From: Bdellovibrionales bacterium
GTDB taxonomy: Bacteria; Bdellovibrionota; Bdellovibrionia; Bdellovibrionales; JAUICD01
DNA length: 64,000 bases
Reading direction: 5' to 3'
Assembly (NCBI GenBank): GCA_965203875.1
Contig: OZ241914.1
Coordinates: 269,209 to 333,208, forward strand
Part shown: piece by piece, positions 435-60,638 of the stretch
Position numbering within the stretch: the stretch's first letter is position 1
Layout of the letters: each line of letters opens with the position of its first letter
Notes under the pieces: generated by a model
Seen by the model: the letters and a program-made list of their open reading frames with translations, nothing else
What the model was told of the DNA's origin: nothing
Databases searched by the model: none
Translations under genes and position numbers: made by a program

Positions 435-1100
435 CTAGCTAATTAGTCGATTATTTAGTTTGATCTCTTTTTTATTTGTTTCTTCATGCTGAATCCTTTT
501 ATCTATATATTCCTGAATAGCTAGTACAAAACCTTTTAGATAACTATCTGGGATCGTATATTGAACTTGATTATTGTCTCCTGTAAGGGTGAACGCAAAA
601 CTACCATTTGTAGCTTGTTCTTTAAGAGTTGCAAAGCTTTCGAAGTCTATGGCTACATGTTCATAGAACACACATGCTGTTGGATTGTCACAAAGCACTT
701 CCCCTGGAATCGTTGTTATATTTAGCTGGGTTTCATCGTAAAGTGCGTTGTTTAGGTTGGGCCAGTCGTTCTGGGAGCGATGGTGAAAGTGTGAAATTGT
801 ATAAATTTGTATAGATTCTACTTCGTTGTTACTTTTAATCCATGCTCTTAGCACAAATTGATTTCCTCTGCTAAATTTTCGTCTGGTCGTGGTTAGTATT
901 TCATCTGTGTATGTATTTTCGAAAGTAGTCTCTGTTTTGACCTTTAAAACTTGTTTATCTTCTGCCCAGCTATATATTTCTTCTTTTGTTACTTCGCCTT
1001 CGGTGGAAGAGTGAGTAACTGACTGGACTGTCCCATCATCAGATGAGCAGGCTGATAGTAAAAAACAAATAACTCCAATTTTACAGACTTTTAGGTTCAT
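435..1100 (-). CDS. Hypothetical lipoprotein, member of a local paralog family (1 domain copy)
   Basis: Signal peptide with lipobox LLSAC and AAGGAG RBS. Shares motifs IQIYT, C-x-C-x-EH and Y-x-I-x-x-S-Y-x-x-x-F-V with the ORFs at 1450 and 2054. Confidence 0.8.
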   Translation of the reverse strand: MNLKVCKIGVICFLLSACSSDDGTVQSVTHSSTEGEVTKEEIYSWAEDKQVLKVKTETTFENTYTDEILTTTRRKFSRGNQFVLRAWIKSNNEVESIQIYTISHFHHRSQNDWPNLNNALYDETQLNITTIPGEVLCDNPTACVFYEHVAIDFESFATLKEQATNGSFAFTLTGDNNQVQYTIPDSYLKGFVLAIQEYIDKRIQHEETNKKEIKLNNRLIS

Positions 1101-1127: not shown

Positions 1128-1154
1128 GGATCGGCATTTAGTCCAGAAAAGTTA
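1128..1154 (-). promoter_or_regulatory. Putative sigma28 (FliA)-type promoter
   Basis: Minus strand reads TAAC-N15-GCCGATCC, close to the TAAA-N15-GCCGATAA consensus, 27 nt upstream of the ATG at 1100. Confidence 0.5.
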
Positions 1155-1168
1155 AATTGAAGACCTTA
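1154..1168 (-). repeat. Isolated end fragment of the hairpin repeat family (AAATTGAAGACCTT)
   Basis: Matches the end of copy A2 (1401-1414) and the reverse complement of 56069-56082. Confidence 0.55.
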
Positions 1169-1190
1169 AGAAAACCTGTTTGGAGTCCAT

Positions 1191-1293
1191 CTTGAACGTT
1201 GCACAACTTTTTTAATAAACGCACTCTGGCTTCACTTTCGGCCTCTGGCCTAACCGTTTTGCCAGTGTACATTTATTAAAAACGAAGGGCCTT
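1191..1293 (-). repeat. Interspersed hairpin repeat, copy A1
   Basis: Reverse complement aligns end to end with 19600-19701. Outer stem TTTTTAATAAA / TTTATTAAAAA, core GGCC-AGA-GGCC. Confidence 0.85.
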
Positions 1294-1310
1294 AGTCTGT
1301 TGGAGCATAC

Positions 1311-1415
1311 CTTGAACGTTGGGCAACATTTTACCAAATGTTTTCGTAGCTTTCGTTTAAGACCTTCGGTCTTGCCACTAAGCTAATCAAACATTTGGTA
1401 AAATTGAAGACCTTT
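1311..1415 (-). repeat. Interspersed hairpin repeat, copy A2 (tandem with A1)
   Basis: Starts CTTGAACGTTGGGCAAC and ends AAATTGAAGACCTT. Stem ATTTTACCAAATGTTT / AAACATTTGGTAAAAT, core GACC-TTC-GGTC. Confidence 0.85.
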
Positions 1416-1449: not shown

Positions 1450-1998
1450 ATGGCCCTTCTTTTATTGCTCTTTATTCCAAATCATCCACTTGTGGCATAC
1501 GAAATGCCAACCGACACAAAATCAACGGCTGCAAGTATCAAATTTGATCACTATGAAGGAATAAATAAAACAATAGCCTCTAGCCCATCGATAACCCAAG
1601 GCAAAACATCCTATAAACTAGTGGGAGTATTCAATAACAAAGGAGAATTATACGACCAACACCTTCACGTCACATCGCTTTTCTCTGACTGGGCATATCT
1701 AAATAAAGGACTGAGCTACGGACAACACCTCAACGTAACAAAGATAAAAAAAGAATTCACATGCAAAGTTAATCCATGTGTCTACTCAGAAACTATAACT
1801 GTTCACTTTGAAAACTTCGAAAAACTAAAAGAAGAATCTACAAAACCAGGAGTTTGGAGATTTGAACTTATAGGTGCTAACACTAAAAAACAATACACAG
1901 TGCCTAGGAGCTATCTAAGAACATTTGTATCTTCGATAGAGGCAAATAAAGATCTTATAAGACAAAGGGCAACCTTAAAGGCTGCTATGGAAAAATAA
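1450..1998 (+). CDS. Hypothetical exported protein, paralog family (1 domain copy)
   Basis: Hydrophobic N-terminus; motifs CKVNPCVYSE and YTVPRSYLRTFVSSIE are shared with its neighbours. Confidence 0.75.
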   Translation: MALLLLLFIPNHPLVAYEMPTDTKSTAASIKFDHYEGINKTIASSPSITQGKTSYKLVGVFNNKGELYDQHLHVTSLFSDWAYLNKGLSYGQHLNVTKIKKEFTCKVNPCVYSETITVHFENFEKLKEESTKPGVWRFELIGANTKKQYTVPRSYLRTFVSSIEANKDLIRQRATLKAAMEK

Positions 1999-2053: not shown

Positions 2054-3367
2054 ATGAACAAGACAAAGGTTTTTGTAGGACTGATCATATTAAGCATCAT
2101 TCTTGGTGTTATAAAGCTTAAGCGAGTGCAAACTCCCAAAACAGAGGATAGGTTACCTGCCAGTAAAACTAAGGCTTTTACATTTGCAAACGTAAAAATT
2201 GATAGAAAAACCCTCCCTTCTTCTAGAAACTTTGTGCATAACAAGATAGAAAACACAAGTACAGTGACAGGGTATTTGACGGCAAATCAAACGCCAAACC
2301 AAGCACCTAAAGGGGACTACTTTATAAGAGCCGCCATTAATTCACCAGATCAAATAGGTCCTGTGCAAATATACACAATAACAAAACTGCCCCGCACATG
2401 GCAGGATCTGTTACCAGGCACAGGGCTTGCCAGACCTGATGTAACCCGCCCAGGGCGAGACAATAATTGTGAAACTGCTAAAGCATCTGATGACAGCGAA
2501 AATCTTTGTATATCTGAACACATAGTGATGAGCTTTAAAACATTAGAAGACTTTAAGAAACATGTAGTTGCCAGTGTTCACAGTGGCCGTATTAATGAAT
2601 TGGGTAATTATAGGTTTTCTTTATTATCACCAGGAGCATTTTTTGATCGTAAGTATCACAAAGCTGTATACGATATTTCAGGAGACTATATAATGACTTT
2701 TATGTCAGAAATTCAAAAATACTTACCCGATGTTAAACCCACAGAAATAGAAAATGAGCTACTAACTTTTAGAAATACAAAAATTAACACGGAACAAATG
2801 CGTTCTGTTGAAGGCTTCGTACACAACAATCTAGAAAACATAAGCACAGTGACCGGATATTTAATGCCAAACCACGTGCCTGACCAAATGCGGACTTCTG
2901 CACAGCCAGCTACGGGAGATTACTTTATGAGAGCTGCCATTCTCCCACCTGGAAAATTAGAGTCTGTACAAATATACACAATAACAAAATTGCCTTTCAA
3001 ATGGCACTCCGGCAACTTATATGTTTTTGGCTTCGGAGAACATGTTTGGTTAGAAGCGGATGATGACTGTCAACCTATCGAAGTATCTAGTGATAGCCAA
3101 AACCTTTGTGTTTCTGAACACTTAGCAATAACCTTCGATGCGGATGAACTTGATCATTTTATCTCTAGACTCGAGAATGCAACAAACGCCCATGAATACC
3201 GTAGATTTTTAATATCAACACCAGGAGTAGGTAAGGTAGCCGAAAAATATCGTAACGTTGAGTATTTTATCGATAAATCTTATATTACAGAGTTTGTGTC
3301 AGCGATCCAACGACATACTCTACCTGCTAAAGCCGTAGCAGACGCAGACAGACAGGCCCAACTTTGA
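2054..3367 (+). CDS. Hypothetical membrane-anchored protein with two tandem copies of the paralog domain
   Basis: N-terminal TM segment. Internal duplication: FVHNKIENTSTVTGYL..GDYFIRAAI..VQIYTITKLP versus FVHNNLENISTVTGYL..GDYFMRAAI..VQIYTITKLP. Confidence 0.85.
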   Translation: MNKTKVFVGLIILSIILGVIKLKRVQTPKTEDRLPASKTKAFTFANVKIDRKTLPSSRNFVHNKIENTSTVTGYLTANQTPNQAPKGDYFIRAAINSPDQIGPVQIYTITKLPRTWQDLLPGTGLARPDVTRPGRDNNCETAKASDDSENLCISEHIVMSFKTLEDFKKHVVASVHSGRINELGNYRFSLLSPGAFFDRKYHKAVYDISGDYIMTFMSEIQKYLPDVKPTEIENELLTFRNTKINTEQMRSVEGFVHNNLENISTVTGYLMPNHVPDQMRTSAQPATGDYFMRAAILPPGKLESVQIYTITKLPFKWHSGNLYVFGFGEHVWLEADDDCQPIEVSSDSQNLCVSEHLAITFDADELDHFISRLENATNAHEYRRFLISTPGVGKVAEKYRNVEYFIDKSYITEFVSAIQRHTLPAKAVADADRQAQL

Positions 3368-3527: not shown

Positions 3528-4322
3528 ATGCCCAGAGTTATATGCGTGGTCAATCAAAAGGGAGGAGTTGGAAAAACAACTACCAGCATAAATCTTTCCT
3601 ATGCTTTGGCTAATTTAAACAGAAAAGTATTGTTGATAGACATGGATCCACAGGGTAATGCCTCTGGAGTTCTGTCAAAAGCTACAGATAAAACCGTATA
3701 CCACGTGCTTACAGGAGAAAGAGACATAACTTCTGCCTTGGTCAAAACTAGTGTTGAAAATCTAAAAGCCCTAGTGTCCAACGCTGATCTTGTAGGAGCA
3801 GAAGTTGAGTTAGTGCAATTTCCAGAAAGGGAGTTGCGGCTTAAAAATGCTTTAAATTCTCTATCAGAGCATTTCGACTATGTGCTTATCGATTGCCCTC
3901 CCAGTTTGGGGCTTTTGACCGTCAATGCTCTGTGTGCAGCGGATAGTTTTTTGGTACCTCTACAATGCGAGTACTATGCTTTGGAAGGTTTGGGTAAATT
4001 GTTAAATACCTCTGGGCTTATAAAAAATAGTCTTAATAAAAACTTAAAGTTAGAAGGGATAGTGCTAACCATGTTTGATACCAGAAATAGACTATCGCAC
4101 CAGGTTCTAAATGAGGTAAAAAAGCATTTTAAGGATCAGGTCTTTGAAACAATCATTCCCAGAAGTGTAAGACTTAGTGAGGCACCTAGCCATGGGATGT
4201 GTATATTTGACTATGATAAAGAATCTGTAGGAAGCAAACAATACCAAGCCTTAGCATTTGAACTAGATAGAAAGAATTTTTTAAAAACAAGTAAGGAGGA
4301 GTTTTGTCTACAGACATTGTAA
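3528..4322 (+). CDS. parA: Chromosome partitioning ATPase ParA/Soj
   Basis: Deviant Walker A NQKGGVGKTT, DMDPQGNAS and IDCPPSLG motifs. Confidence 0.97.
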   Translation: MPRVICVVNQKGGVGKTTTSINLSYALANLNRKVLLIDMDPQGNASGVLSKATDKTVYHVLTGERDITSALVKTSVENLKALVSNADLVGAEVELVQFPERELRLKNALNSLSEHFDYVLIDCPPSLGLLTVNALCAADSFLVPLQCEYYALEGLGKLLNTSGLIKNSLNKNLKLEGIVLTMFDTRNRLSHQVLNEVKKHFKDQVFETIIPRSVRLSEAPSHGMCIFDYDKESVGSKQYQALAFELDRKNFLKTSKEEFCLQTL

Positions 4323-5158
4323 AGGGTAAAAAAGGGTTGGGCAAAGGATTGGCTAGCTTGATACCTAGCGTACCTACAGAACAACTTTCAAAACAAAAAG
4401 TTTTAGAAATCGACATAGACTTGGTGATACAAAACAAAGCTCAGCCTAGAAAAAATTTTGAAAAAGAGAGCCTCCTAAAGTTGGCTGAATCTATTAAACA
4501 ACACGGGGTTGTGCAGCCTATAGTGGTTAGAAAAAAACAAAAACACTTTGAAATTATAGCAGGGGAAAGGCGTTGGAGAGCTGCTAATCTAGCAGGCCTT
4601 GCCACAATCCCAGTGGTGTTAAAGCAAATAAATAACCAGCAAGCCAAGGAAACAGCCATAATAGAAAATATTCAAAGAGAAGACCTAAACCCAATAGAAG
4701 AGGCCGAGGCGTATAAAGATCTCTTGGAAAACTACGACTTAACGCATAGCGAAATAGCCAAGCGTGTATCCAAAGATCGGGCAACCATATCTAATTTGCT
4801 TAGGATTTTATCTCTTCCTAGTAAGGTGAGAAGTTTTGTTGAACAAGGCAAGCTTTCCTTGGGCCATGCTAAAGCCTTGGCTTCTGTTAGAGACAAGTCT
4901 AGTCAAAATCGATATGCAGATATTGTGGTACAAAAAAAACTTAGTGTTAGAAGATTAGAATCTCTTATTTCAAAGCCTACCAATAAGAAATCGCAGGATA
5001 AAACTTTAAAACTAGTAGAGAGTATTGCACAAAAGCTTCAGAAAAAACTAGGTACAAAAATATCTATTAGTTATAGAAATGCAAAAGGCAGAATATGCAT
5101 ACACTACTATTCCTCAGAACAATTCAACGGCATTGTAGCTAGATTAGATGGAAACTAA
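4304..5158 (+). CDS. parB: Chromosome partitioning protein ParB/Spo0J
   Basis: IIAGERRWRAA arginine patch and IENIQREDLNPIEEA; directly follows parA. Confidence 0.97.
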   Translation: MSTDIVKGKKGLGKGLASLIPSVPTEQLSKQKVLEIDIDLVIQNKAQPRKNFEKESLLKLAESIKQHGVVQPIVVRKKQKHFEIIAGERRWRAANLAGLATIPVVLKQINNQQAKETAIIENIQREDLNPIEEAEAYKDLLENYDLTHSEIAKRVSKDRATISNLLRILSLPSKVRSFVEQGKLSLGHAKALASVRDKSSQNRYADIVVQKKLSVRRLESLISKPTNKKSQDKTLKLVESIAQKLQKKLGTKISISYRNAKGRICIHYYSSEQFNGIVARLDGN

Positions 5159-6000: not shown

Positions 6001-6549
6001 ATGACTCCCATGTTTTATTTTTTTATTCCACAAACATTGTATGCAGCTTCAAGTGCTCAGGCACATGGCATACCAGACGTGGTTTGGTTTCAAGCTTTAA
6101 ACTTCATTTTGTTTGTAGGGCTACTATGGTTTCTTTTAAAAAATAAAATTACTAAATTTTATTTAAATAGAGAACTAAAATTCAAAGAACTTTTTAAAAG
6201 TGCCAGCGTAAAAAAAGATGAAGCTCTTAATGAGCTTAAAAACTTTGAAATGAAGTTAAGTGAAATTTCTAATACTAGGGATGCACAAATTGCAAAAGCC
6301 AAGGAAGATTCTCTAAAGTCAAATCAAAAATTACTAAGTCAGGCAGACACGCATGCTAATAGAATAAAAAAAGACAGCATCGAAACAGCCAATATAGAAC
6401 AGAAAAAAGTACATGAAATGTTAAAAGCTCACTTGCTACTTAGTGCTATAGAAAATGTATCTAACGAATTAAAAAGTCATGTATCATCTGACATACATTC
6501 TAAACTTCATAGCGAGTTCAAAAGTAGGGTAAAAAATGAACGTTTATAA
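6001..6549 (+). CDS. atpF: ATP synthase F0 subunit b
   Basis: QALNFILFVGLLWFLLK TM plus coiled coil; operon position. Confidence 0.85.
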   Translation: MTPMFYFFIPQTLYAASSAQAHGIPDVVWFQALNFILFVGLLWFLLKNKITKFYLNRELKFKELFKSASVKKDEALNELKNFEMKLSEISNTRDAQIAKAKEDSLKSNQKLLSQADTHANRIKKDSIETANIEQKKVHEMLKAHLLLSAIENVSNELKSHVSSDIHSKLHSEFKSRVKNERL

Positions 6550-7024
6550 TAGATATGCCCAAGCTTTATTTGATTTAGCTAAAGATGAAGGACAAATAAC
6601 TGATATTTATAATTTCAAATCTAACCTAGATAAAGAAGTTCAAGATTTTTTTAATAATCCAGTTATAAGCTCTGAGGATAAAAATAAAATTGTTGATATA
6701 ATGACAAAGACTGAACTTGTAAAAAAGTTTTTTAAACTTATGCTGGACAGAGGCAGGACGGATTTTCTTTCTTGCATTAAATCCTTTGAGAAGATAAGCG
6801 ATATAAAAAATAATATTGCAAGAGGAAAAGTTATTTCTGCTGTTTTTCTTTCAAAAGAAGAAAAAAAAATGTTAGAAACAGTTTTTTTGGAAAAAATTAA
6901 TAAAAAAGTAATTTTTGAGTATGAAATAGATAAATCTATTTTGGGCGGTATAAAAGTTATAATTGGCGGATTGATATTTGAAGATACTTTACTCAACAGA
7001 TTAAATAAATTGAAAGAAATATAA
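6536..7024 (+). CDS. atpH: ATP synthase F1 subunit delta
   Basis: RYAQALF N-terminus and [12 protein letters not shown]-terminal motif. Confidence 0.9.
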
Positions 7025-9373: not shown

Positions 9374-10788
<1,415 letters not shown>

Positions 10789-10789
<1 letters not shown>

Positions 10790-11100
10790 TGGAATCTTTA
10801 AATTTAAACCTTTTAACTCCTAAAAAAAAATTACTTATCGATCAAAAAACGTTAGAGATAAGAGTTGCTGCTTATAAAGGGGAGCTAACTATTTTACCGG
10901 GGCATGCCCCTTTAATAACAACTTTATCTTCTGGAATATTAGCTTATAAAACAACAGACAACAAAACTCAAAAAGCTCATCTGTCTTGGGGTTACTTAGA
11001 AGTTTTAGATGATGATGTGAATATCCTTGCAGAAGAAGTTAGAAAATCGGATCAAGACGATGAACGTGTTAACATAGACTTTGGAAAATTGAAAAATTAA
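10789..11100 (+). CDS. atpC: ATP synthase F1 subunit epsilon (short, 103 aa)
   Basis: GELTILPGHAPLITTL motif; last gene of the operon. Confidence 0.9.
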
Positions 11101-11110
11101 GACATTTTTC

Positions 11111-11803
11111 TCATCTACCTGTACGATTAATATAAAATAAATCACTTTCTAAAATCCAACCTGTGACGTTTTGATCTTTTACAAATACCCAATTACTATT
11201 TGATTTTTTAACAACCATCTTGCGTCCTATAGGTATGGTTAATATAGGGGCACTTGTTTTATCAGGTGCTGTATAGAGTGATGTATTTTGCTTTGATACA
11301 GCCAGAGTCTGATAACCCCTGCTAATTTTTATGAGAATCGTACTAGATAGTACAAAAAAACATACCCACGAAAAAATAAATTTTTTAAAATAAAACCCAG
11401 GTTTTTTATTATATAAAACAATAAACCTGCTATAGAATATAACAAGAAATAAAAAGCTTATAAATAAAAGTAAGTTCAAAGGAAGATCTAAGTTTCTATC
11501 TTTATAAATTTCAATTTCAGGATTTATGTTTTTAATCTTTTCTAAAACTGGCTTTGCCAGCTTGTGCCCTCTAAATAGTGCTGCATTTAAAAATCCTACA
11601 GCCTGACCAATTTCGTTGATCTTATAATTGATAACTCCTAAGTTATATAAAAGATTTGCATCATCTGGTTTTTTTTCTAAAAGCTCTTTAAAATGCAGCT
11701 CTGCCTGCCTATAATTTTTATTATTATAGGCTTGTACCCCAGAATCAAATAAAGCTTGGCTACAAAAAGCCTTGATAGTAAGTAAGGTTATTATGGAGAT
11801 CAT
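11111..11803 (-). CDS. TPR plus C-terminal SH3-like membrane protein (BatE-like architecture)
   Basis: TPR pattern LLYNLGVINY, two TM segments, C-terminal LYTAPD...WVFVK..TGWI. Confidence 0.7.
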   Translation of the reverse strand: MISIITLLTIKAFCSQALFDSGVQAYNNKNYRQAELHFKELLEKKPDDANLLYNLGVINYKINEIGQAVGFLNAALFRGHKLAKPVLEKIKNINPEIEIYKDRNLDLPLNLLLFISFLFLVIFYSRFIVLYNKKPGFYFKKFIFSWVCFFVLSSTILIKISRGYQTLAVSKQNTSLYTAPDKTSAPILTIPIGRKMVVKKSNSNWVFVKDQNVTGWILESDLFYINRTGR

Positions 11804-11848: not shown

Positions 11849-13207
11849 ATGTCAAGTGAAATAGAAAACACAAAAGATATACTGATATCTAACTTGATGA
11901 ATGAAATAAAAAATCAAGATATAGATGCTATTAAAAAGCCTTCAGATCCAAATTTGGCTAAAGAATTTTGTAAAAAAGTGGCAGCCTTAAGGGGCAGACC
12001 ATTATTTTTGCCATACATGGGTAGTGGTAGAGGTAATGGTGTGTATGTAGAACTAGAAGATCTCAGCGTTAAGATGGATCTGGTAGGCGGAATAGGTATA
12101 CATATCTTAGGACATGGACACCCAGAAGTAACCAAGGCTGCACTCAAAGCAGCAACGTCAGATATTGTTATGCAAGGAAATTTACAAATGAATGTGGATT
12201 GGATTAAACTATCTGAAAAATTTGTGAAACTTGCTTCCAAAAATTCAAACCTACAACATTCATGGCTTACCACTTCAGGAACTATGGCTAACGAAAATGC
12301 TCTTAAGATTATACGCTCAAAGCATAGGCCAGCTAGAAAAATAATTGCTATGAAAAAGGCCTTTGCAGGACGAAGCACGATGATGAACGAAATTAGTGAT
12401 AATCCAGAATATAAAAAAGGTTTACCTACTTATGATGAAGTATTAAGGCTTGAGTTTTATAATAGCTCTATTAGCAATTCTTGCGAAAAAACTTTGGCTA
12501 AGCTTAGAGAACATATATCAAACAACAAAGACAATATAGCAGCATTTGTGTTTGAGCTAGTACAAGGTGAGGGCGGTTTTCGAACAGCTCCCCGTAAGTT
12601 CTTCCTACCTCTTTTAGAAGAGTGCAAAGCTAATGGCATCGCAATATGGGACGATGAAGTGCAGACGTTTGCTCGTACAGGAGAATTTTTTGCGTATGAA
12701 AAACTGGATTTAGGCAAATATGTAGACGTTGTTACTGTAGGCAAAGCTCCTCAAATAGCAACCACTTTATTTACAAAAGAATATAATCCCAGACCAGGCT
12801 TAATTGCAGGAACTTTTGCTGGTTCCACTGTTCAGATGGCCACAGGTCTTAAGATACTAGAAATATTAGAGCACGGTTTTATGGGAACAAATGGTAGGAT
12901 AAATGAGATTTATAACAGATTTACCTCTAATATATCTCATTTAAACAACACTGAATGTAAAGGATTGATAAATGACATAAGTGGAATGGGATTGATGATA
13001 TCGGTAACTCCATTTGATGGAACCAAGGAAAACCAAATAGGGCTTATTAAGACTTTTTATAAAAATGGATTAGTTACATTTGGATGTGGTAGGGATCCTT
13101 ATAAAATTAGATTTTTACCGCCAGCTATTATTACAGATAATCAAATAGATCTGGCTTGTGAGATTATAAAAAACTCGGTTTTAGAATATAAGCAAAAGGC
13201 AGATTGA
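11849..13207 (+). CDS. Class III PLP-dependent aminotransferase
   Basis: FELVQGEGG, WDDEVQT and VTVGK motifs, GTF. Substrate cannot be assigned from sequence. Confidence 0.88.
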   Translation: MSSEIENTKDILISNLMNEIKNQDIDAIKKPSDPNLAKEFCKKVAALRGRPLFLPYMGSGRGNGVYVELEDLSVKMDLVGGIGIHILGHGHPEVTKAALKAATSDIVMQGNLQMNVDWIKLSEKFVKLASKNSNLQHSWLTTSGTMANENALKIIRSKHRPARKIIAMKKAFAGRSTMMNEISDNPEYKKGLPTYDEVLRLEFYNSSISNSCEKTLAKLREHISNNKDNIAAFVFELVQGEGGFRTAPRKFFLPLLEECKANGIAIWDDEVQTFARTGEFFAYEKLDLGKYVDVVTVGKAPQIATTLFTKEYNPRPGLIAGTFAGSTVQMATGLKILEILEHGFMGTNGRINEIYNRFTSNISHLNNTECKGLINDISGMGLMISVTPFDGTKENQIGLIKTFYKNGLVTFGCGRDPYKIRFLPPAIITDNQIDLACEIIKNSVLEYKQKAD

Positions 13208-14202
13208 TGATAAGAATAATGCTAGCTCTAGGCATTTGTGGGTTTTTAGCTTTGGCTCTATTTGTGTGCTACAATATGTATCTTCCAAACCATCGTTCTT
13301 CTGAAAAAATCATTTTTGATGTAGCTCCAGGAGACAATTTTAATAAAATTTCTGATAAGCTAATTTTAAAAAAACTTATTAAAAACAAACAAATATTTTT
13401 ACTCTATACAAAAATATTTGGTTTTGAAAAAAATCTTAAGGTAGGTGAATACGAACTATATTACAACATGAGCCCTAGTAAAATAATTCATACACTAACT
13501 TCGAAAAATTCTTATGCTAGACTAGTTACTTTTATGGAAGGCTTGAATGTATATGAAATTGCTGATCTGTTAAGTAAAGAACAACTAGTTGATAAAGAAA
13601 AGTTTTTAGATCTCATAAAAGAACAGGCTTTCATAGAAAGTCTCATGGGAGAAAAACTAAACAGTTTAGAAGGATTTTTATTTCCTGAAACCTATAGGAT
13701 AGAAAAATACATGGGTTCTAAAGCTATTATTGCCATGATGGTTAATAATTTTCTAAAGGTATATAATAGCATTAATCCCAGATATAATAAATATATTAGA
13801 AATAGAAATGAAGTCATCATATTGGCAAGTATTATAGAAAAAGAAACAGGAGCTAGCTTTGAAAGACCTTTTATTTCTTCTGTTTTTTACAATAGATTAA
13901 GACGTGGCATGAAACTACAATCTGATCCTACTATAATATATGGAATACTAATGGATACAGGAATACATATAACAAATATTAGAAGACGAGACATTACATC
14001 ACAAAATGAATACAATACCTATCACATATACGGACTTCCCAAAGGACCTATAGCTAATCCGGGAGAAGATTCTATTAAAGCTGTGTTTAATCCAGAAAAC
14101 ACACAATACCTTTACTTCGTAAGTAAAAATGACGGAACACATAAGTTTTCCAAGAATTATAAAGAACATCAAAAAGCGGTAAACCTATATCAAAAACGAT
14201 AG
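13207..14202 (+). CDS. mltG: Endolytic transglycosylase MltG (YceG family)
   Basis: LEGFLFPETY, ASIIEKE, LQSDPT and YNTYHIYGLPKGPIANPG motifs. Confidence 0.95.
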   Translation: MIRIMLALGICGFLALALFVCYNMYLPNHRSSEKIIFDVAPGDNFNKISDKLILKKLIKNKQIFLLYTKIFGFEKNLKVGEYELYYNMSPSKIIHTLTSKNSYARLVTFMEGLNVYEIADLLSKEQLVDKEKFLDLIKEQAFIESLMGEKLNSLEGFLFPETYRIEKYMGSKAIIAMMVNNFLKVYNSINPRYNKYIRNRNEVIILASIIEKETGASFERPFISSVFYNRLRRGMKLQSDPTIIYGILMDTGIHITNIRRRDITSQNEYNTYHIYGLPKGPIANPGEDSIKAVFNPENTQYLYFVSKNDGTHKFSKNYKEHQKAVNLYQKR

Positions 14203-19599: not shown

Positions 19600-19701
19600 A
19601 AGCCCTTCGTTTTTAATAAATGTGCATTAGCGGAACGGTTAGGCCGGAGGCCGAAAGTATAGCTAAGGTACATTTATTAAAAAAGTTGTGCAACGTTCAA
19701 G
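19600..19701 (+). repeat. Interspersed hairpin repeat, copy B1
   Basis: AAGCCCTTCGTTTTTAATAAATG...GGCC-GGA-GGCC...CATTTATTAAAAAAGTTGTGCAACGTTCAAG; matches the reverse complement of A1. Confidence 0.85.
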
Positions 19702-19725
19702 ATAGATTATAAATAAATTTCCTCC

Positions 19726-19841: not shown

Positions 19842-20327
19842 ATGAGTCCATTAAAAAATATAAAAGCAGTAATATTTGATGTAGATGGTACTATGACTGA
19901 TGGGACAATATGGCTGGACAAAGATAATGAATATAAGAGAAGTTTTTATGTGCAAGATGGAGAGGGGATAAAACAATTAATTAATGCAGGTTATACAACT
20001 GGAGTAATAACGGCTGCTGATTCAAATGACATAGATCATAGAATTAAATTTTTAAACATACAGCACTTTTATAAAAAATCTCTGGATAAGCTAAAAGACT
20101 TTTTAAATTTTTTGGAAAAAACAAAATATAAATCAAATGAAGTTTGTTACATAGGGGATGATCTAGCAGATATACCAGTACTAAATAAATGTGGATTTTC
20201 AGTTTGCCCTAAGAACGCTATCAACAAAGTAAAAGAAGTGTCATGCTATATAACCAAAAGTCTAGGGGGAAAAGGTGCAGTTCGTGAATTGTGTGATATT
20301 TTATTAAAATATGGGTATTATAAGTAA
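19842..20327 (+). CDS. kdsC: KDO 8-phosphate phosphatase (HAD family)
   Basis: FDVDGTMTDG, YIGDDLAD and GGKGAVRE motifs. Confidence 0.92.
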   Translation: MSPLKNIKAVIFDVDGTMTDGTIWLDKDNEYKRSFYVQDGEGIKQLINAGYTTGVITAADSNDIDHRIKFLNIQHFYKKSLDKLKDFLNFLEKTKYKSNEVCYIGDDLADIPVLNKCGFSVCPKNAINKVKEVSCYITKSLGGKGAVRELCDILLKYGYYK

Positions 20328-20343
20328 TCCAAAGATAGGTGAA

Positions 20344-21066
20344 ATGATGATAAGAATTCTATTTATACTAATATTGATCTCTCAGACTAGCGTTGCAGAA
20401 ACAATTAAATTTTCTGAAGATGAACTTGCTCCTGAATCTGTGCTCCCAATTTTTCCCAGGTCAGTTTATGTTAAAAACAGAAATATTGTTAAAACCAATT
20501 CCTTAGAAATACAACCAGTTGCAGGCATCTCTATGAATAATCCATTTTTTGATGCGTTTACTTTAGGAGGTTCTTTAGGGTTTTATTTTTCAGAAGAACA
20601 CGGCATAAATCTTATGGTTAGCAAAATGTTCGATAAAAAATCGAAGTATGCAGTAGCTTTGGAACAATATCAAGAAGGTGGGACGGTTAAACCACAACAA
20701 AAATTTGATGTTTTTCAAAGGCATGATATGGTTGCCCTGTTTAATTATGAGTACAGCCCTTTCTATGGAAAACTAAGTTTAGCTAAATGGATAAATCTTA
20801 ATACAGACATAGTGGCAACCTTAGGAGCAGGATATGTTTTTTTAAAGGATGCAGAATTTCCAGCAATATCTATAGGATTGGGACAAAGGTTTTATTTAGG
20901 AAAATCATTTGGATTTAGATTCAATATCTATTCTTTTTTCTATAAAGGAGTAGATTATCTAGCTAGAAAATATATAGAGCAAACAGGAAAGTTGGATAGC
21001 AATACAATAGATAAAGAACTCAAGTTAGATATTATATCTACAATGGGATTGATCGTATTGCTTTAG
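20344..21066 (+). CDS. Outer-membrane beta-barrel protein of the gliding cluster (GltA/GltB-like)
   Basis: Signal peptide, beta-strand pattern, YGKLS motif shared with the next gene; gliding-cluster context. Confidence 0.7.
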   Translation: MMIRILFILILISQTSVAETIKFSEDELAPESVLPIFPRSVYVKNRNIVKTNSLEIQPVAGISMNNPFFDAFTLGGSLGFYFSEEHGINLMVSKMFDKKSKYAVALEQYQEGGTVKPQQKFDVFQRHDMVALFNYEYSPFYGKLSLAKWINLNTDIVATLGAGYVFLKDAEFPAISIGLGQRFYLGKSFGFRFNIYSFFYKGVDYLARKYIEQTGKLDSNTIDKELKLDIISTMGLIVLL

Positions 21067-21178
21067 ACTAGTGTATGAAATTTAAAACTTATTGCTTTGG
21101 ACTAGTATTTAAATTTCATAAACTTATCTCATGATCAGGTCTTTTATTTAACAATAACTATAATAGAATTAAAATAGT

Positions 21179-22048
21179 ATGAAGAGTATACTGGTTGTAT
21201 TTCTATTAACTATTTCTGTCGAATCATTTGGTCAAACAGAAGAGGCTTTTTCCTTGGATGATGGATCAAACTCGGCAGATTCAATACAAGGATTAGATGA
21301 TGTATTAGAAGATTCTCCAGACGATACAGCATCTGATAATGAGTCTATAAGAAGCGAGCTTCCAGACTCTCCTTCTGACTTAGGCCAATTAATTCCTTAT
21401 AAAGATATAGCCGTAATACAAAGAAGGTACTTGTCTAAATCTAAAAGGGTAGAACTAACTCCGTTCATTGGATTGGTGGCAAATAATTCTTTTTACTTAA
21501 ATAATCCATTGGGTGCAAATATAAGTTATTACCTGTCAGACTATCTGAGCATCGAAGCTACCGCAGCTTATATACTTAAGTCTGATAGATCTGTAACTCG
21601 TAAACTTGCTTCAGACAAATGGATGGTGGGAATAGAAAGCGTAATGTTACCTAGATCATTTTATGATGTTGGTTTCAAGGTATCTCAGGCATATGGAAAA
21701 CTTGGATTTTTTAAAAATAAAATTGCTCCGTTTGATATGTACCTTGGATTAGGAGTAGGACAAACTTACACAAATCAAACTCTTGGAAATACTAAACCAA
21801 TGTCTTATCGAATAAACACAGGCCAAATATTTGCAATAAATAAAATGATGGCTTTTAAGTGGGATATATCTTGGAGGATTTATTATTACGATAATACAGG
21901 GCATATAAATAGAGGTAATCAAAATAATGTTGTTTCAGAAACAAGCGAAGAACAAACTTCTGCTCCTATCAAAATGAAAGGTTGGAATACCGACATATAT
22001 TTTACTTTAGGACTAAGTCTCTTTTTTCCAGATGCGGAGTATAGATAA
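21179..22048 (+). CDS. Outer-membrane beta-barrel protein of the gliding cluster (GltA/GltB-like)
   Basis: IAVIQRRYLSKSKRVE and YGKLGF..PFDMY motifs; paralog of the preceding gene. Confidence 0.75.
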   Translation: MKSILVVFLLTISVESFGQTEEAFSLDDGSNSADSIQGLDDVLEDSPDDTASDNESIRSELPDSPSDLGQLIPYKDIAVIQRRYLSKSKRVELTPFIGLVANNSFYLNNPLGANISYYLSDYLSIEATAAYILKSDRSVTRKLASDKWMVGIESVMLPRSFYDVGFKVSQAYGKLGFFKNKIAPFDMYLGLGVGQTYTNQTLGNTKPMSYRINTGQIFAINKMMAFKWDISWRIYYYDNTGHINRGNQNNVVSETSEEQTSAPIKMKGWNTDIYFTLGLSLFFPDAEYR

Positions 22049-23700
22049 TGAAACACCTAGTATTTATCCTGATATTTGCATTTATTCTGCCCTCTGCTGG
22101 ACAGGCCAACGTAGGGGGCTCTTTTTTGGAAGTAGCTCAAGCACAGGTGAAAAAATCCAAGAAAAGATCAGTTAGAACTAAAAGAAAAGCTAGAAAAACA
22201 AGATCCAACAGAAAGAGAGCAAGAAGATCTAAGTCACAAGCTGCACAAATAAGAAAACTAAATAGCATAGAAGCCATGATAGCCTCTGATAACAATCAAG
22301 GTGCACTTAAGGAATTATTCAAAATAAGAAGAAGTTTTAGGTTTAGATCCCATAGATCAAAAATTTATTATCTTATGGGTTTAGCGTTTTATAATCTTAA
22401 TTTTTACCAAACAGCTGCTTTTCAATTTGGAATGGCTGTGACTGGCTCTAGAGGACGCAACTTAGTAGAGAGCATAAATAAACTAGAACATATAAGCACA
22501 AATATTTTACATTCGAGTGCTATGCTAAACTACGCCTTAAGTAAAGTAGAACTGAGTACTTTTCCTAAAGAATACCAAAATAAATTAAGGGTAGTAATAT
22601 CGGAAGTTTATTTAACCAATAAACAATATGACAGTGTTATAAAAATATTAAGTAAAGTAGACAGAAATAGCGAAGAATACTTAAGAGCCAAATATATTCA
22701 AAGTTTGGCTTATGCAGAAATAAATAAACCCAAGCAAGCATATAAAGGGTTTTCTGAACTAGCTAACATTAGAAATAATCATGCTACGACTGATGTAATT
22801 AGGGTTAATGCAACTTTAGGCATGGCTAGAGCTGCTTACCAAGCCAAAGACTGGAAAGAGGCCATTAGAAAATATAAAATGATACCAAGGGACACTATCC
22901 AGTGGCACGACTCTATATTTGAACTAAGTTGGGCACAGATGCGGGCTGCTCAGTTCAGATCAGCACTTAGTAATTTTCACTCCCTACACTCGCCATATTA
23001 CAAGGAAATGTATCAACCTGAATCACTAATCTTAAGAGCTATAATATATCTCTATATCTGCAAGTATGACGAACTAGATAAAGTGTTAAAAGTGTTCAAA
23101 AACACATATTTTCCAATAAAAGAGAAGCTAGTTAGCTACACTGCTGGCAGTAAAAATCCGAAAGAGGTGTTTGATGATCTAGTTAGTGTTCAAAGGCAAT
23201 ACGAGGAAGGTGTGGAAATAGAACATATAGGCTCAAAATTACCAGTTGTTGGGGCTCTTTCCATTTTAAGAGATCCTAAGATAAAGAATTACTTAAAATA
23301 TGCCCAAATGCTTCAGGCAGAGAAAGTAGTTTTACAAAATGCGTCTTGGGCAAGCTCTGCTATGCAAAGGTATGTGTCTAATATGCTAAACAAAAGACTT
23401 GAAAATACAAAAAAAGCAGCCGGCAGAAGCATTATAAATACCCTGGGTTTGATGAGGTCTCATTTAATAGAGCTCTCAGATCAACAGTACGATTTTATTA
23501 GATATGAAATGTTAGGAGCACAAAAAAGTAAAGCTAATAAGACAACTGATGAAGGTAAAAAATCTAAACAAAGAATAGATGCCAAAATCAACAGAGGATT
23601 TTACGTCAGAAATGGCTATGAGTACTGGCCTTTTGGCGGTGAATATTGGTTAGACGAAATAGGGAACTATTACTTTTTAGGGGTGTCTAACTGTGAATAA
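22048..23700 (+). CDS. gltC: TPR protein, adventurous gliding GltC-like
   Basis: TPRs, FELSWAQM..ALSNFHSLHSPY and C-terminal YWPFGGEYWLDEIGNY. Confidence 0.75.
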   Translation: MKHLVFILIFAFILPSAGQANVGGSFLEVAQAQVKKSKKRSVRTKRKARKTRSNRKRARRSKSQAAQIRKLNSIEAMIASDNNQGALKELFKIRRSFRFRSHRSKIYYLMGLAFYNLNFYQTAAFQFGMAVTGSRGRNLVESINKLEHISTNILHSSAMLNYALSKVELSTFPKEYQNKLRVVISEVYLTNKQYDSVIKILSKVDRNSEEYLRAKYIQSLAYAEINKPKQAYKGFSELANIRNNHATTDVIRVNATLGMARAAYQAKDWKEAIRKYKMIPRDTIQWHDSIFELSWAQMRAAQFRSALSNFHSLHSPYYKEMYQPESLILRAIIYLYICKYDELDKVLKVFKNTYFPIKEKLVSYTAGSKNPKEVFDDLVSVQRQYEEGVEIEHIGSKLPVVGALSILRDPKIKNYLKYAQMLQAEKVVLQNASWASSAMQRYVSNMLNKRLENTKKAAGRSIINTLGLMRSHLIELSDQQYDFIRYEMLGAQKSKANKTTDEGKKSKQRIDAKINRGFYVRNGYEYWPFGGEYWLDEIGNYYFLGVSNCE

Positions 23701-26700
23701 AACCACCATCTTTATTTTAGCATTAATAACTTTCTTGCAAGCAGAAGCCTTGGGAAGAAATTCTAAGACTGTTGAACAGTTACTTAGAAATGTGAACAAA
23801 AAAAGTATAGAGAAAAAGGCAACGGTTATTAGAGCCGGCAAGGTAGAAGAAAAAAAGATCAAAAGATCACAACCTAAAAACATCATGCCTAAATCTGAAG
23901 ACTTTAGGATAAACACCACAGGTGAAGATGCTGTATCTGAACAATTTTTGAATGAACAAATAAGAATTATGTCGGGTTTAGTTAAAAAGCACAAAAGTGC
24001 TAGCACTAGAGGCGAACTATGGCTTAGGTTAGCTGAACTGTATATACAAAAGGCTAGTTACCTAGACAAAGCCATACAGACTAAATTTGATAATGAGCTG
24101 GCCAAGTGGGAAGCTAGAAATAGAACTGGTAAAAGGCCTGTTTTAAATACTTCTTCTGTGAATGAATACAGCATTAGATCTATAAAACTGTGTGAAGCTT
24201 TTCTGACTCAATTTCCTAAAGATTCTAAAGTTGACAGAGTGCTATACTTTTTAGGTCTAAATTATATGGAATTAGGAAAAAGTAAACAGGCGATTAAACA
24301 TTTTAATCAACTGAAGGCCAAATACAAAAACAGTGAGTATATAGGCCTTGCTAGTTTTGTTTTGGCCACACACTACTTTGACACCAGACAATGGACACAA
24401 GCTAAACAGAACTATCTGGCGGTGATAAAAAATAAATACATTGCAAAACCTATAAAACAAAATCTTGTTCCAAATGCACTTTATAAATACGCATGGTCCG
24501 ATCTTCAACTAGACAACCCGGACAGGGCCTTGGTGAATCTTGAAAAGATATATAGACTATCAAAATCTAAAAACTCACTGGAAGGCTATAAAAGATTAAA
24601 AAAACCTGTGTTATTTGACATAGTGCAGATCTATAGCAGAACAAAAAAATCAGCAAGTTCGGCAGAAAGGTATCTAACAAACACATTAGGTTTATCTGAA
24701 AAGAACATTTCAAAATATTTAAAGGCAATAGCATATCAATACAGTGATAATGGAAATCTATCTTCTGCAAGGCTGTTATTTAAAAGATTGATACAAATAA
24801 AACCTAACTCTAAAGAAGCATTGGATTATCAAGAGGAAATTGTCAAAATGTATAGACATGCTGATAATAAAATATTCTTAGCCGAGTTGAACATATACAT
24901 AACAAGATTTGCTAAAGGATCTGATTGGTATAAAGCAAATGTGCAGAATCAAGAACTAATAAATGAGTCTGCTAAAACCAGAGAAATACTTCTTAGAAAT
25001 TATATATTGAACAACCATCAGTTGTATCAAAAAAGCAGAACTAAGGCTAGTAAAAACAGAATCTTAGGCGCATATCCTATCTATCTGAGAGAATTTTCAA
25101 ATAGTAAAGAAGCTTCAACTATGCATTTTTACTATGCAGAACTTATGTATGATTTAAAAAATTATGACAAAGCAATGAAGCATTATATGATTGTTGCTGA
25201 TGGAGATACAAAAAGTAAACATTACGATACAGCTTTGCTTAACGCATTACTTGCAGCAGATGAAACTATTAAGAAAGTTAAGACCAGTAAGAGAACTAAT
25301 TCTATAGAGAAAATTCCATATACCCAAGCAGAAAGTAACTTTGTCAAACTTGCTAAAAAATATGTGGCAACTATAAAAAATGATAAAAACAGTGCCAGCA
25401 TCCATATGAAACTTGCTAGATTATACTATCTAAAAAATAATTTTGACGAAGCTTTGGTAAATTTCTGGGATATAATTAAGAAATTTCCAAAGAGTAAACA
25501 AGCTACTTATTCAGCCAACCTGATATTAGATGTTTATAATTTGAAAAAAGACTATCAAGGCTTAGCCGAAGCTGGTAAGAAGTTATTAAAATATGAAACC
25601 CTTATAGCTAGTGCAGAAGGCGGTAAAAGTGAAATCAAAAACATTAAAAACATTGTCAATAATGCTAGACTTAAGAATGTTCAAGATATTGAAAAGAAAG
25701 GAGATCATTTACTAGCAGCCAGAGAATACATAAAGTTTGCAAAACAAAGTAATGACCTAGATTTAAAAAATAAAGTAACATTCAATGCTGCTATAAACTT
25801 TGAGAAAGCAAATGCTGCTCTAAAAGCTATAGATCAATACGAAGCTTACCTAAAAATAAATAGAGATACCAGTGATGAAACGGTCAAAAAAGCTAATAGG
25901 CTACTAGCAAATCTATATGAGCAAACAGGAAATTTGCAAAAGGCAGCTGTAGAATTTGAAAAGTATGCAAAAAGCTACCCTTCTGATCAATATGCAGATG
26001 AATCTATTTTAAATTCAGCAAGAATTTTTAGAGGTTTCAAACAGTATCAAAAAGCTCTTAATAACTTTAGAACATATCGCAATAAAGTAACATCAAAAGC
26101 CAAAAAAGATAAGATCCTCTTTGAAATAGCAGAGACTAAAGAAGAGATGAGAAACAGATCGCAAGCGTATACAGATTATTCAAATTATGTTACTTCTAAT
26201 CCTTCAGATGGACATATGCTGATGTCTTCTCTTCTAAAATTGTTTAGAATGGCTCAGAAATTTAGAAAGAATGACATTGTCAAATGGCGTGATAAAATAA
26301 TAGGAACGCAAAAAGCTCTTAGTAATATTGGTATGCCTGAAGCAGCTGAGGCAAGGTTTCATAAAGCAAAGCAGTTATATTCAACATTTGCAAAATCCAA
26401 AATATCACACAACCCTGCTAAGCAAGCAGCTACTATTGTGTCAAAACAAAAGTTGTTAGACAAGTTGGCTGCAGAGCTATCTGCAATCATAAAATATGAT
26501 GATGGTCACCATGTGGTGCGATCAGTTGCTATGATTGCAGAAGCAAATGAAGATTTTATTAAAGCAATAGAAGCAGTCCCTGTTCCAAAAGTTCTTAAAA
26601 CAAAACAACAAATTGCTGAATATAAGCAAGGTATAGAACAACAATTACTATCTCCACGTAGAAAAATAGTAATGGAAAATTATAAACTAGCAATAGATAA

Positions 26701-27511: not shown

Positions 27512-27519
27512 GAAGTGAT

Positions 27520-27771
27520 ATGACTAGATTTTTAATTTTTGTTTTTATAATTTTATTTTCTTTTAATTCTCATGCTCAGAAGAAAAGGAATAAAAGAACA
27601 ACTATAAACTTTGAAGATCAGTTGATCGAGGGCAGTGCTCAAAGCCCTGATCTATTTTTCCTAATGCAAAAAGGAAAATTTGACTTCAAAAAACTTATTA
27701 AACTTAGAGAGAATTTCTTGCCTGAGATGAGAAGATCCACGGAAGAAATAGTAATTAAACGAGGAGAATAG
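27520..27771 (+). CDS. Small exported gliding protein CglF/GltF-like
   Basis: Signal peptide then TTINFEDQLIEG..PD..LIKLRENF. Confidence 0.7.
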   Translation: MTRFLIFVFIILFSFNSHAQKKRNKRTTINFEDQLIEGSAQSPDLFFLMQKGKFDFKKLIKLRENFLPEMRRSTEEIVIKRGE

Positions 27772-27775
27772 TTAA

Positions 27776-30082: not shown

Positions 30083-30094
30083 AAGGAGGATATT

Positions 30095-30775
30095 GTGGAA
30101 GAAGAAGTAATGCAGGAAGTGGTAGAGCGAAACTTTATAGCACAGGCATTTATAGATGGCGGAATACCAACAATGACCGCTATTGCTATAGTTGGTGTGC
30201 TAACCGCACTACTTATAGTAGAAAGATTTATGACGCTTAGTAAATTTGGAGTTGATAAGAGAAGCGTAACAGATGGAGTATTTAATGCGATACTTCGTGG
30301 GGACATAGCAACTGCTATTTCGTTTTGCGATTCAAAAATAACTCCGCTTACTGATACTCTTAAGGCTGGGCTTGTTCAGGTTATGAATAAAAGAAATGAC
30401 GAAGAAGTTCAGGTAGCTATGGATGCTGCTGTGTTAAGACATACTCCTAAAGTGGAAGGTTGGACAGGATTTTTGGCTGTCTTTGGTAACGTTGCAACTT
30501 TGGCAGGACTACTTGGAACAATCATAGGTTTGATAAAAGGTTTTGGAGCACTTGCAGAAGTTGATCCAGCAGAAAAAGCAAACATCCTATCTGCAGCAAT
30601 ATCTCACGCACTGAACTGTACAGCATTTGGTTTGATTGTGGCAATACCGGCTATTATTGGATATGGATTTTTCCAAGTTCGTGTTGGAAGACTTCTAAAT
30701 GATATGACCGAAAGCTCTATGAGTTTGATGAATGTAGTAGTTTCTAATAGAGATAAAATCTATAAAGGTAAGTAA
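30095..30775 (+). CDS. MotA/TolQ/ExbB proton channel (AglR-like)
   Basis: ATLAGLLGTIIGLI..F and ALNCTAFGLIVAIP motifs. Confidence 0.92.
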   Translation: MEEEVMQEVVERNFIAQAFIDGGIPTMTAIAIVGVLTALLIVERFMTLSKFGVDKRSVTDGVFNAILRGDIATAISFCDSKITPLTDTLKAGLVQVMNKRNDEEVQVAMDAAVLRHTPKVEGWTGFLAVFGNVATLAGLLGTIIGLIKGFGALAEVDPAEKANILSAAISHALNCTAFGLIVAIPAIIGYGFFQVRVGRLLNDMTESSMSLMNVVVSNRDKIYKGK

Positions 30776-56045: not shown

Positions 56046-56515
56046 TAAGGTCCTTCGTTTTTGAATTAAAGGTCTTCAATTTTTAATAAGTGTACATGAC
56101 GAATCAATAAGGCCGCAGGTCAAGCGAAGTTATGTACACTTTTAAAAATGTTTACCAGCTCTCAAGGTAAACTCCAAAAGATTATCTAAAGGTCTTTAAA
56201 TTTTGTCAAAGATTAGCGAAGCGGTAAGGCATACAGTTTAAAGCGTAGCTATGAAAACATTTGGTAAAACTTTAGGGCTTTAAGACAATCTGTCGTAGTT
56301 TACCTTGAACGTTGGTTAACATTTTATCAAATAATAGCTTAGCACCCAAGCCCTTCAATTCTTATCAAAGCTAGCGAAGTGGTTAGACCGCAGGTCAAAC
56401 GAAGCTAGGTTTTGATAAGAATGTTGTGCACCATTCAAGGTAAACTACGAAAACTTTTCTCGACCTTTGGTCTTACCACTACGCTAGCTATTATTTGATA
56501 AAATTAAAAAGCTTT
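56046..56515. repeat. Cluster of hairpin-repeat copies: C0 end fragment 56046-56061, C1 56068-56175, C2 56188-56280, C3 ~56293-56515 (minus strand, interrupted), C4 56348-56450 (nested in C3)
   Basis: Same AAGG(T/C)CTTCAATT left end, G(A/G)CC-GCA-GGTC core and TTCAAGGTAAACT right end as copies A and B; the outer stems are self-complementary. Confidence 0.85.
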
Positions 56516-56921
56516 AGTGTCTCAATGTGATAATTTATATGTGTGTGAGGGGTATTTTTCTGGACTTAGTTTTGTTTTTCTTTGTGAAAAGGGTTTTTTG
56601 TCGTAGAATTTAGAGTTTGGTAAGTTTGGTTTTAAGTTTTAGGTTTTTATTTTGTTTTTTTTAAGATCTTTATTTATTCGTTTTAAAAATACTTTTCTTT
56701 TAAAGGGCCGGCTGAAAGCCGGCAGATTGATTGGGCCGAAGGTTGGTTTTTATAAAGCTCCGCAGTCGCAAGTTAATTTTTTGTTTAAGAGGCTGGCCGA
56801 AGGCCAGCAAACTGATCCAACCGTAGGTAAGCCAGCAAATGCGTCCAGTCGCCATGGATGGTTCAAAAGCTTATGTGAATCACGAAAAACTTGGTTACTC
56901 CGAAGTTCTGCAGCCGTTAGG

Positions 56922-60492: not shown

Positions 60493-60638
60493 TACTAAAT
60501 ATTACTGTAACAACTAGTAGAGTGTATACTCATCAAAACGAAGGGTCTTATTTATAAATACTACATTTTTATAGTGAAATTGAGTTTTTTAACTAAATTA
60601 TAAACAATTATGCTAATATCACCTTCTAAAGAAACAAC

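Follow-up and report, generated by a model that had tools for sequence, protein, structure and literature searches.

Hairpin repeats forming a probable non-autonomous mobile element in a small-genome lineage related to Bdellovibrionota

A family of hairpin-forming repeats was found in the window, i.e. the whole 64-kb stretch of DNA analysed here, and probably represents a lineage-specific, non-autonomous mobile DNA element of ~107-126 nt, which depends on its structure and works in a manner similar to REPINs or to the Rickettsia palindromic elements (RPE). The family includes five intact copies (107-126 nt), one split copy, two degenerate ones and three orphan left ends, distributed over three intergenic loci and one remnant and totalling ~1 kb, or 1.6% of the window. 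It is previously undescribed and lineage-specific, no descriptions of such repeats in Bdellovibrionota having been found in the literature, and it is recently active or recently unstable. Three rival explanations, namely structured RNA, host recombination and MITEs moved by a DDE transposase, are judged less likely than a mobile element. The host is an uncultured lineage related to Bdellovibrionota with a genome of 1.24 Mb and a GC content of ~35%, and the nearest named homologues are found in Bdellovibrionales, Bdellovibrionota and Oligoflexia MAGs at 34-48% identity.

All copies are written here as 5'-AAGSYCTTC ... TTCAAGG-3'. Locus A (1151-1415, minus strand) consists, head to tail, of A2, A1 and an orphan left end. 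A2 (1294..1415, minus strand) is intact, scores 109.2 bits with the covariance model and folds as DNA with a z-score of -4.8, the corresponding values for the intact, 126-nt A1 (1168..1293, minus strand) being 115.9 bits and -2.9. The tail of A2 abuts the left end of A1, and the two copies belong to different subfamilies (65% identity). The orphan left end A0, AAGGTCTTCAATTTAAC (1151..1167, minus strand), recognised by its match to the left-end motif, adjoins the tail of A1. Locus B (19600 to ~19815, plus strand) begins with the intact, 126-nt B1 (19600..19725, plus strand; 120.8 bits), which is 84% identical to A1 and whose bounds are set by the empty site of a second strain, in which A1 was also found. 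The left end of B1 touches the start codon of gpmI, which lies on the opposite strand. Immediately 3' of B1, the degenerate B2 (19726..~19815, plus strand) retains the left end AAGCCCTAAAG and a decayed hairpin with weak BLAST matches to C1 and A1, and is present in both strains.

Locus C (56047-56515) opens with the orphan left end C0, AAGGTCCTTCGTTTTTGAATT (56047..56067, plus strand), which matches the left-end motif, and continues with C1 (56068..56187, plus strand; 106.8 bits, DNA fold z-score -4.5), an intact copy with the variant tail CCAGCTCTCAAGG. C2 (56188..56281, no strand assigned) is a chimeric or degenerate unit which scores 37.1 bits and forms no hairpin (z-score -0.4); the tails of C1 and C3 abut its ends, and since it carries the left-end motif at both ends, without a tail, it was probably assembled from two half copies. 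C3 (minus strand) is interrupted by C4 (plus strand): its tail-side half, made of the tail and the 3' stem arm, occupies 56282..56347 (minus strand; 39.2 bits), and its left-end-side half, with the left end AAAGCTTTTTA, the 5' arm and a GACC-AAA-GGTC hairpin, occupies 56455..56515 (minus strand; 41.7 bits for the region). The intact C4 lies between them at 56348..56454 (plus strand; 115.2 bits, DNA fold z-score -2.95), with a right boundary uncertain by ~6 nt. Finally, the truncated remnant D1 (60510..60549, minus strand), detected by a BLAST match, consists of the left end AAGACCCTTCG and ~25 nt of the 5' arm, and is located between the stop codon of the ORF at 57319-60492 and the next gene.

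Five parts make up each unit: the left end, conserved as (A)AAG(G/C)(T/C)C(C)TTC(G/A); an outer stem, 12-22 bp long; a further stem (YTRGC/GCYAR) of 4-5 bp; an internal loop rich in purines, which carries an apical G(G/A)CC-NNN-GG(T/C)C mini-hairpin; and a conserved tail which is not palindromic, (A/T)GTTGNNCAACGTTCAAG(G/A)T..ACTCCAAACAG.TT.TCTT. The apical loops are AGA in A1, GGA in B1, GAA in A2, GCA in C1 and C4, and AAA in C3. C-GNA-G triloops occur in four of seven copies, and we take them to match a very stable DNA mini-hairpin motif. A first-pass annotation of this DNA had already described a left end, four outer-stem pairs, a central hairpin with its various loops, a small palindrome and a tail, all of which were confirmed on reading the loci, the left end as AA(A)G(G/C)(T/C)C(C)TTC(G/A), the hairpin as G(A/G)CC-NNN-GG(T/C)C and the palindrome as GTTG-NN-CAACGTTCAAG. 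The copies which it listed are likewise all present, but the units are longer than it had reported, the tail running on for ~25 nt beyond TCAAG. Its comparison with IS608, whose right end finishes in TCAA, does not hold, as the strain comparison places the end of the unit ~25 nt past TCAAG. Two ideas on the apical hairpin were discarded: a tRNA-like origin of the apical AGTGGTTAGAC, as ARAGORN finds only tRNA-Val and there is no matching D-stem, and a role of GGA loops as a CsrA decoy, as GGA is present in only some copies.

The window hairpin repeats are a real family. As the first-pass annotation had proposed, covariance models were built, and two of them were scored across the whole 64 kb with filters off; the intact copies (n=5) obtained 75-121 bits, C2 and the halves of C3 22-42 bits, and no other place in the 64-kb window exceeded 16 bits. 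The left-end motif has 11 matches against 2.8 expected from shuffled sequence, and GRCCNNAGGYC has nine against 0.5. The hairpins of the intact copies have z-scores of -2.9 to -4.8. Copies of the family also account for the four strongest local inverted repeats of the window, and a repeat finder reports the family too. Pairwise identity among copies ranges from 63 to 84%. Every covariance-model match in the window is intergenic, and the ORFs crossing the units are short and non-conserved, the units encoding nothing and keeping no reading frame.

The pairing of the stems is maintained despite this divergence. A structure-guided alignment was made for six copies of the window and one of a relative; because the fold guided its manual construction, it leans towards structure. 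Over these seven copies, standard pairs occupy 98.2% of the cells and both sides have changed at 17 of the 29 pairs. None of 500 shuffles equalled the observed values, and sliding the partners left 27-44% of them paired. A model-free comparison of the arms gave a concordant picture, each 5' arm being closer to its reverse-complemented 3' partner than to the arms found in other copies, and in C4 the insertion of one base pair is compensated (ATTCTT / AAGAAT). Copies differ by 16-37%, yet almost no stem pair is broken, whereas neutral change after insertion would have broken roughly a quarter of the pairs; this argues that the variants were already paired at insertion and that the fold is needed for propagation. 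The claim that the element is selected for its structure, made when the repeats were first noticed, is thus borne out by the covariation counts.

The two strands of the element are not equivalent. On the written strand the folded stems contain eight G·T and no A·C pairs, and the arm alignment contains 5-8 G·T against 0-1 A·C, an asymmetry which consists of few events; moreover, the opposite strand folds worse in six of the seven copies. Folding of one strand may thus be what matters, and the folded hairpin, together with the left end, the apical mini-hairpin and the tail, would constitute the substrate of a trans-acting enzyme encoded elsewhere.

Movement is visible in array C, where C4 is nested, in reverse orientation, within the apical part of C3. 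Once C4 is removed, the canonical hairpin of C3 is restored (-21.3 kcal/mol as DNA), and the junction has no flanking repeat, no target-site duplication and no shared end motif. Further evidence was obtained from the assembly of a second strain of this species (ENA ERZ25067941 contig_1, 1.24 Mb), which was reached via the proteins of the window and is 98.2-99.96% identical to it. Arrays A and C are the same in both strains except for two SNPs, and B1 is absent from the second strain, with a clean 126-nt gap at 19600-19725 as the sole change in 600 nt. Since the strains are otherwise 1 SNP apart over the 15 kb between 8 and 23 kb, the event at B1 was recent. The nested copy and the clean presence or absence of B1 between near-identical strains uphold the initial suggestion of a mobile element, and the empty sites which it had recommended looking for are found both in the second strain and in the element-free spacer of a distant relative.

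The gap at B1 is bounded on both sides by the 7-nt AAGCCCT, which constitutes the left ends of B1 and B2, so that an insertion of B1 5' of B2 and a slipped-strand deletion are equally possible. No two copies are near-identical, and the copies read include no donor for a recent insertion of B1. Slipped-strand deletion across this direct repeat would explain the empty allele if the repeats were passive palindromes without an enzyme of their own, shaped by host recombination at AAGSYC ends, hairpin slippage and arm-matching repair. The resemblance of C2 to a recombinant of two half copies and the lack of a transposase among the window ORFs tested would both agree with this explanation, as would the RPE, which likewise have no known transposase. 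It is nevertheless improbable that the family arose in this way, given that neither a flanking repeat nor a shared end motif accompanies C4 where it lies in the C3 loop region, that unlinked loci hold interleaved subfamilies, and that correction from arm to arm would not give G·T pairs on one strand.

The layout of the arrays bears on how copies of a mobile element would accumulate. In five of the six complete copies an AAGSYC left end, oriented alike, directly follows the tail, even though array neighbours belong to different subfamilies, which interleave across unlinked loci; this arrangement indicates a putative preference for insertion immediately 5' of a resident left end, as opposed to tandem duplication. 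New copies would land at this position and head-to-tail arrays would result. The tetranucleotides adjoining the copies on the 5' side are GGTT, TCAT, ATTT, ACCC, AAAT, CACT and GATC, and the comparison of these seven flanks revealed no conserved target sequence.

Copies which insert into one another have been described for several bacterial MITEs (PMC10969869), and the window repeats share with these elements a small size, an AT-rich and non-coding sequence, an intergenic location and clustering. They could accordingly be regarded as deletion derivatives of an IS, moved by a DDE transposase which binds terminal inverted repeats (TIRs) and duplicates its target. Their termini, AAGSYCTTC and ...CAAACAGGTTTTCTT, are however not inverted repeats, and the inverted arms lie inside the unit and differ from copy to copy, the opposite of what is found in TIRs bound by a protein. 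Furthermore, target-site duplication is lacking at C4, and the 7-nt repeat at B1 corresponds to the left end of the neighbouring B2, which makes classical MITEs a very unlikely explanation. As to the mechanism by which a mobile element of this kind would move, a single-stranded DNA intermediate, processed by an HUH/Y1-type or other structure-reading recombinase, is tentatively favoured over double-strand cut-and-paste because of the one-strand G·T pairs, the C-GNA-G triloops, the absence of TIRs and target-site duplications (TSDs) and the seamless filled and empty alleles, and it is given a less than even chance. The element would in this respect work in the manner of REPIN/RAYT or IS200/IS605 systems.

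Related genomes extend these observations beyond the species. A relative with 66% (gpmI) and 77% (lolE) amino acid identity keeps the kdsC-gpmI synteny and carries, directly upstream of gpmI, one diverged copy with the same plan and an entirely different stem sequence, which is oriented opposite to the window copy with respect to gpmI. The gpmI product called in this relative, 511 aa long, has its start at a GTG which belongs to the element (L179 10001-10067). Alignment with the window protein places the true start at the ATG at L179 10068, so that residues 1-22 of the database protein are translated from the element. In a more distant relative (59% identity) the spacer at the gpmI site is element-free. 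A search of 77.5 kb from four relatives with a broader model (R2), which included the copy of the relative, returned no further copies beyond the one at gpmI; the family therefore expanded in the focal species.

All three arrays are located in spacers between divergently transcribed genes, of which the window has ~7. Read as its reverse complement, the left end provides a GAAGG which lies 5-9 nt upstream of two start codons, those of gpmI and of a lolE-like gene; for the latter, the GAAGGA supplied by C0 is at a distance of 9 nt. Effects on the host would be side effects of the element, which could arise from its presence in promoter-bearing divergent spacers and from the Shine-Dalgarno-like GAAGG box before gpmI and the lolE-like gene. 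Consensus scans for promoters and terminators at the three loci gave nothing consistent or above shuffled controls, and a function of the units as outward promoters or terminators was rejected on this basis.

The position of the arrays, upstream of genes in divergent spacers, also invites an explanation in terms of structured RNA, with the units being small regulatory RNA genes or cis modules such as 5'-UTR elements, selected for their RNA fold and multiplied by duplication and recombination instead of transposition. Conserved unpaired regions, covarying stems and one-strand G·U pairs are typical of functional RNAs, and the RNA folds of the units reach -31 to -39 kcal/mol; the G·U pairs and the covariation would in fact fit RNA equally well. 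RNA alone, on the other hand, does not account for the insertion evidence, such as C4 inside C3, nor does it sit well with the change in orientation to gpmI between the focal species and its relative, or with truncated and decayed copies being common. No consistent promoter or terminator is present in or beside the units, and 3-nt loops closed by C-G favour DNA hairpins. At the gathering threshold the only Rfam match was the tRNA-Val at 14247, and a permissive search of loci A and C returned only generic miRNA-hairpin noise far below threshold. On balance, structured RNA is an unlikely origin for the family.

If the repeats are mobile, the enzyme acting on them would be encoded outside the region covered. 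No transposase, recombinase, HUH or reverse-transcriptase domain was detected in the window ORFs tested, in agreement with the first-pass annotation, which had seen no transposase in the window, and no Y1/HUH domain and no RAYT gene in the window and ~20 kb of flanks, corresponding to ~7% of the 1.24-Mb genome. Array A had no BLAST match in E. coli genomes or in plasmids. The 21-base pattern CTTGAACGTTGNNYAACWTTT returned single matches, 16 of them in GTDB genomes, 20 in JGI metagenomes and 1 in viral contigs, numbers which are close to chance expectation. The GTDB set has a best gpmI identity of 46% and lacks the source genome and its close relatives. The pattern matches were rejected as family members, since they score at most 29 bits with the covariance model and the best two (L168 and L189) have no hairpin. 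A 15-base tail pattern proved too unspecific as a search key against the genome collection.

An undescribed mobilisation system, based on a structure-reading single-strand nuclease or recombinase or on an RNA-mediated route, or else functional guide-like or regulatory RNAs which transpose, would be a more novel interpretation, to which only a small chance is assigned. Such a system would recognise an asymmetric module formed by the AAGSYC left end, the covarying stem, the apical C-GNA-G mini-hairpin and the AAGGT-containing tail. It would target resident left ends, so that arrays would grow like those of integron cassettes with neither cassette nor integrase.

The family is not a demonstrable member of any named one, and it falls within the known class of small palindromic mobile repeats. 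With regard to the named families, the absence of matches in Rfam, E. coli genomes and plasmids supports the original assessment; its likening of the repeats to REP, BIME and PATE elements stands for the hairpin, the clustering and the lack of TIRs and TSDs, but not for the ends, the target and the subterminal hairpins, which differ. In REPs, a palindrome of 20-50 nt follows a conserved tetranucleotide, which is usually GTAG (PMC8266576). Their recognition is strand-specific on folded single-stranded DNA, and some of them are short palindromes with 3-nt loops (PMC8266576). REPINs form clusters via insertion into or next to resident copies and are excised at the population level (PMC3116915). 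With REPINs and REP-BIMEs, which are moved by RAYT (TnpA-REP) HUH transposases whose genes typically lie between such repeats, the window family shares an extragenic location, a length of ~100 nt, the absence of coding capacity, a hairpin with compensatory stem changes and clustering in or next to other copies. A REPIN is however made of two inverted REPs with conserved mirror-image ends, whereas the window family has asymmetric ends, a variable stem base and a conserved apical mini-hairpin; its left end AAGSYCTTC and its tail GTTGNNCAACGTTCAAGGTAAACTCC... are not reverse complements. GTAG precedes the apical mini-hairpin only in C3, the other copies having GAAG, TTAG, AAAA, GGAA or GAAT.

RPE are similar in being palindromic repeats of 100-150 bp, divided into several subfamilies, in a small AT-rich genome. 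They are noted for inserting in frame into protein-coding genes and for encoding a conserved peptide (PMC10969869), whereas the window copies are all intergenic and have no conserved frame; the hosts also differ, Rickettsia in one case and a Bdellovibrionota-like lineage in the other, and the family is set apart from RPE by description. A review of the subject names no transposase for RPE (PMC10969869). Correia/NEMIS and ERIC elements have in common with the window repeats a size of ~100-200 bp, an intergenic position which is frequently close to the 5' side of a gene, transcripts which fold into long hairpins, and variation between strains. They differ in their conserved TIRs and target duplication, neither of which is present in the window family; the target duplication of Correia elements is TA. 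Moreover, E. coli genomes carrying ERIC and REP have no sequence match to the family.

PATEs, which derive from IS200/IS605, lack TIRs and TSDs as the window family does, and further resemble it in their asymmetric ends, one meaningful strand and seamless presence or absence. Each end of a PATE, however, has a small subterminal hairpin, and insertion occurs 3' of a fixed tetra- or pentanucleotide, in contrast to the one long central hairpin, the non-conserved 5' flanks and the TCAA lying ~25 nt inside the unit which characterise the window family. The attC sites, e.g. the 123-126 bp Vibrio VCRs, are comparable in length, in the prevalence of structure over sequence, in the folding of one strand and in head-to-tail arrays which grow by insertion upstream of the previous unit. 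The RYYYAAC/GTTRRRY core pair found at the base of their stem is absent from the window family, in which GTTG and CAAC are adjacent in the tail instead of lying at opposite ends, and GTTRRRY fits only A2. Unlike attC sites, the window units have no cassettes or ORFs between them, no integrase in the window, and arrays at several loci and in both orientations.

Small hairpin repeats such as REP, REPIN, RPE, ERIC and Correia are widespread, and how they move is mostly unknown or disputed. The window family offers several handles on movement, namely exact filled and empty boundaries, a nested insertion, a landing rule and a covarying stem with fixed flanks and apex. In a genome of 1.24 Mb with few candidate genes, the search for a partner enzyme should be tractable, and the family may help to explain the persistence of such elements in reduced genomes. 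Those copies which lie directly against the start codons of gpmI and of the lolE-like gene may shape the expression of essential genes. Should an ordinary RAYT encoded elsewhere turn out to move a REPIN-like parasite, the result would be a routine annotation of a new repeat family.

Several other features of the window were recorded. A block of ~7.4 kb (window 56754-63446) lies between lolE and prfB, genes which are adjacent in three relatives, and looks like an acquired or lineage-specific island. It contains a type IV pilin-like gene, a Cys-rich protein of 1057 aa and a reprolysin-like metalloprotease; array C is at its edge and D1 inside it. Short GC-rich hairpins with GNA-type loops (GCCGGC-TGAAA-GCCGGC, GCTGGCC-GAA-GGCCAGC and CAACC-GCA-GGTTG) occur at 56700-56950, partly upstream of the pilin-like gene and partly within its 5' portion, and may represent another REP-like type of repeat, related to the main family's apical hairpin; here the second strain has a patch of substitutions at 56707-56760 and lacks 56853-56885 and 56895-56948. 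The gene of the Cys-rich protein includes three tandem repeats of 177-183 nt (59619-60174), a stretch which is the most divergent between the strains (~450 differing positions in 1 kb), and its product is shorter in the second strain (985 aa) than in the window (1057 aa).

At the other end of the window, the genes at 435-1100 (minus strand) and 1450-1998 (plus strand), which diverge from array A, share the C-terminal QYT[IV]P[DR]SYL and their products look like paralogues, as judged from this motif; among 5.8 billion proteins, a search with the protein encoded at 1450-1998 found only itself. The gene at 2054-3367 has an internal 100-nt duplication (2304-2403 and 2907-3006). parB (4304-5158) and the ATP synthase delta/OSCP gene (6536-7024) are intact ORFs in the window, whereas in the second assembly (L166) parB is called as two pieces (10777-11632) and the delta gene as a shorter one (13010-13375). 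These differences are either real frameshifts or long-read indel errors, which bears on the reliability of small differences in the second assembly.

A Glt-type adventurous-gliding-motility cluster is located at 20311-31868, with OMP_myx_plus, GltC-like, GltG-like with an AgmX/PglI tail and TolQ/ExbD-like genes, and is thus carried by a genome of only 1.24 Mb. Divergence between the strains is patchy: the single SNP between 8 and 23 kb is followed, at 23000-28000, by 20-43 differences per kb in the gene of a 1272-aa TPR protein, which suggests recombination import or diversifying selection. Finally, the gene at 42885-44309 (minus strand) encodes a Pro/Gly-rich protein with a weak LysM match and contains repeats of ~54 nt at 43068-43331.
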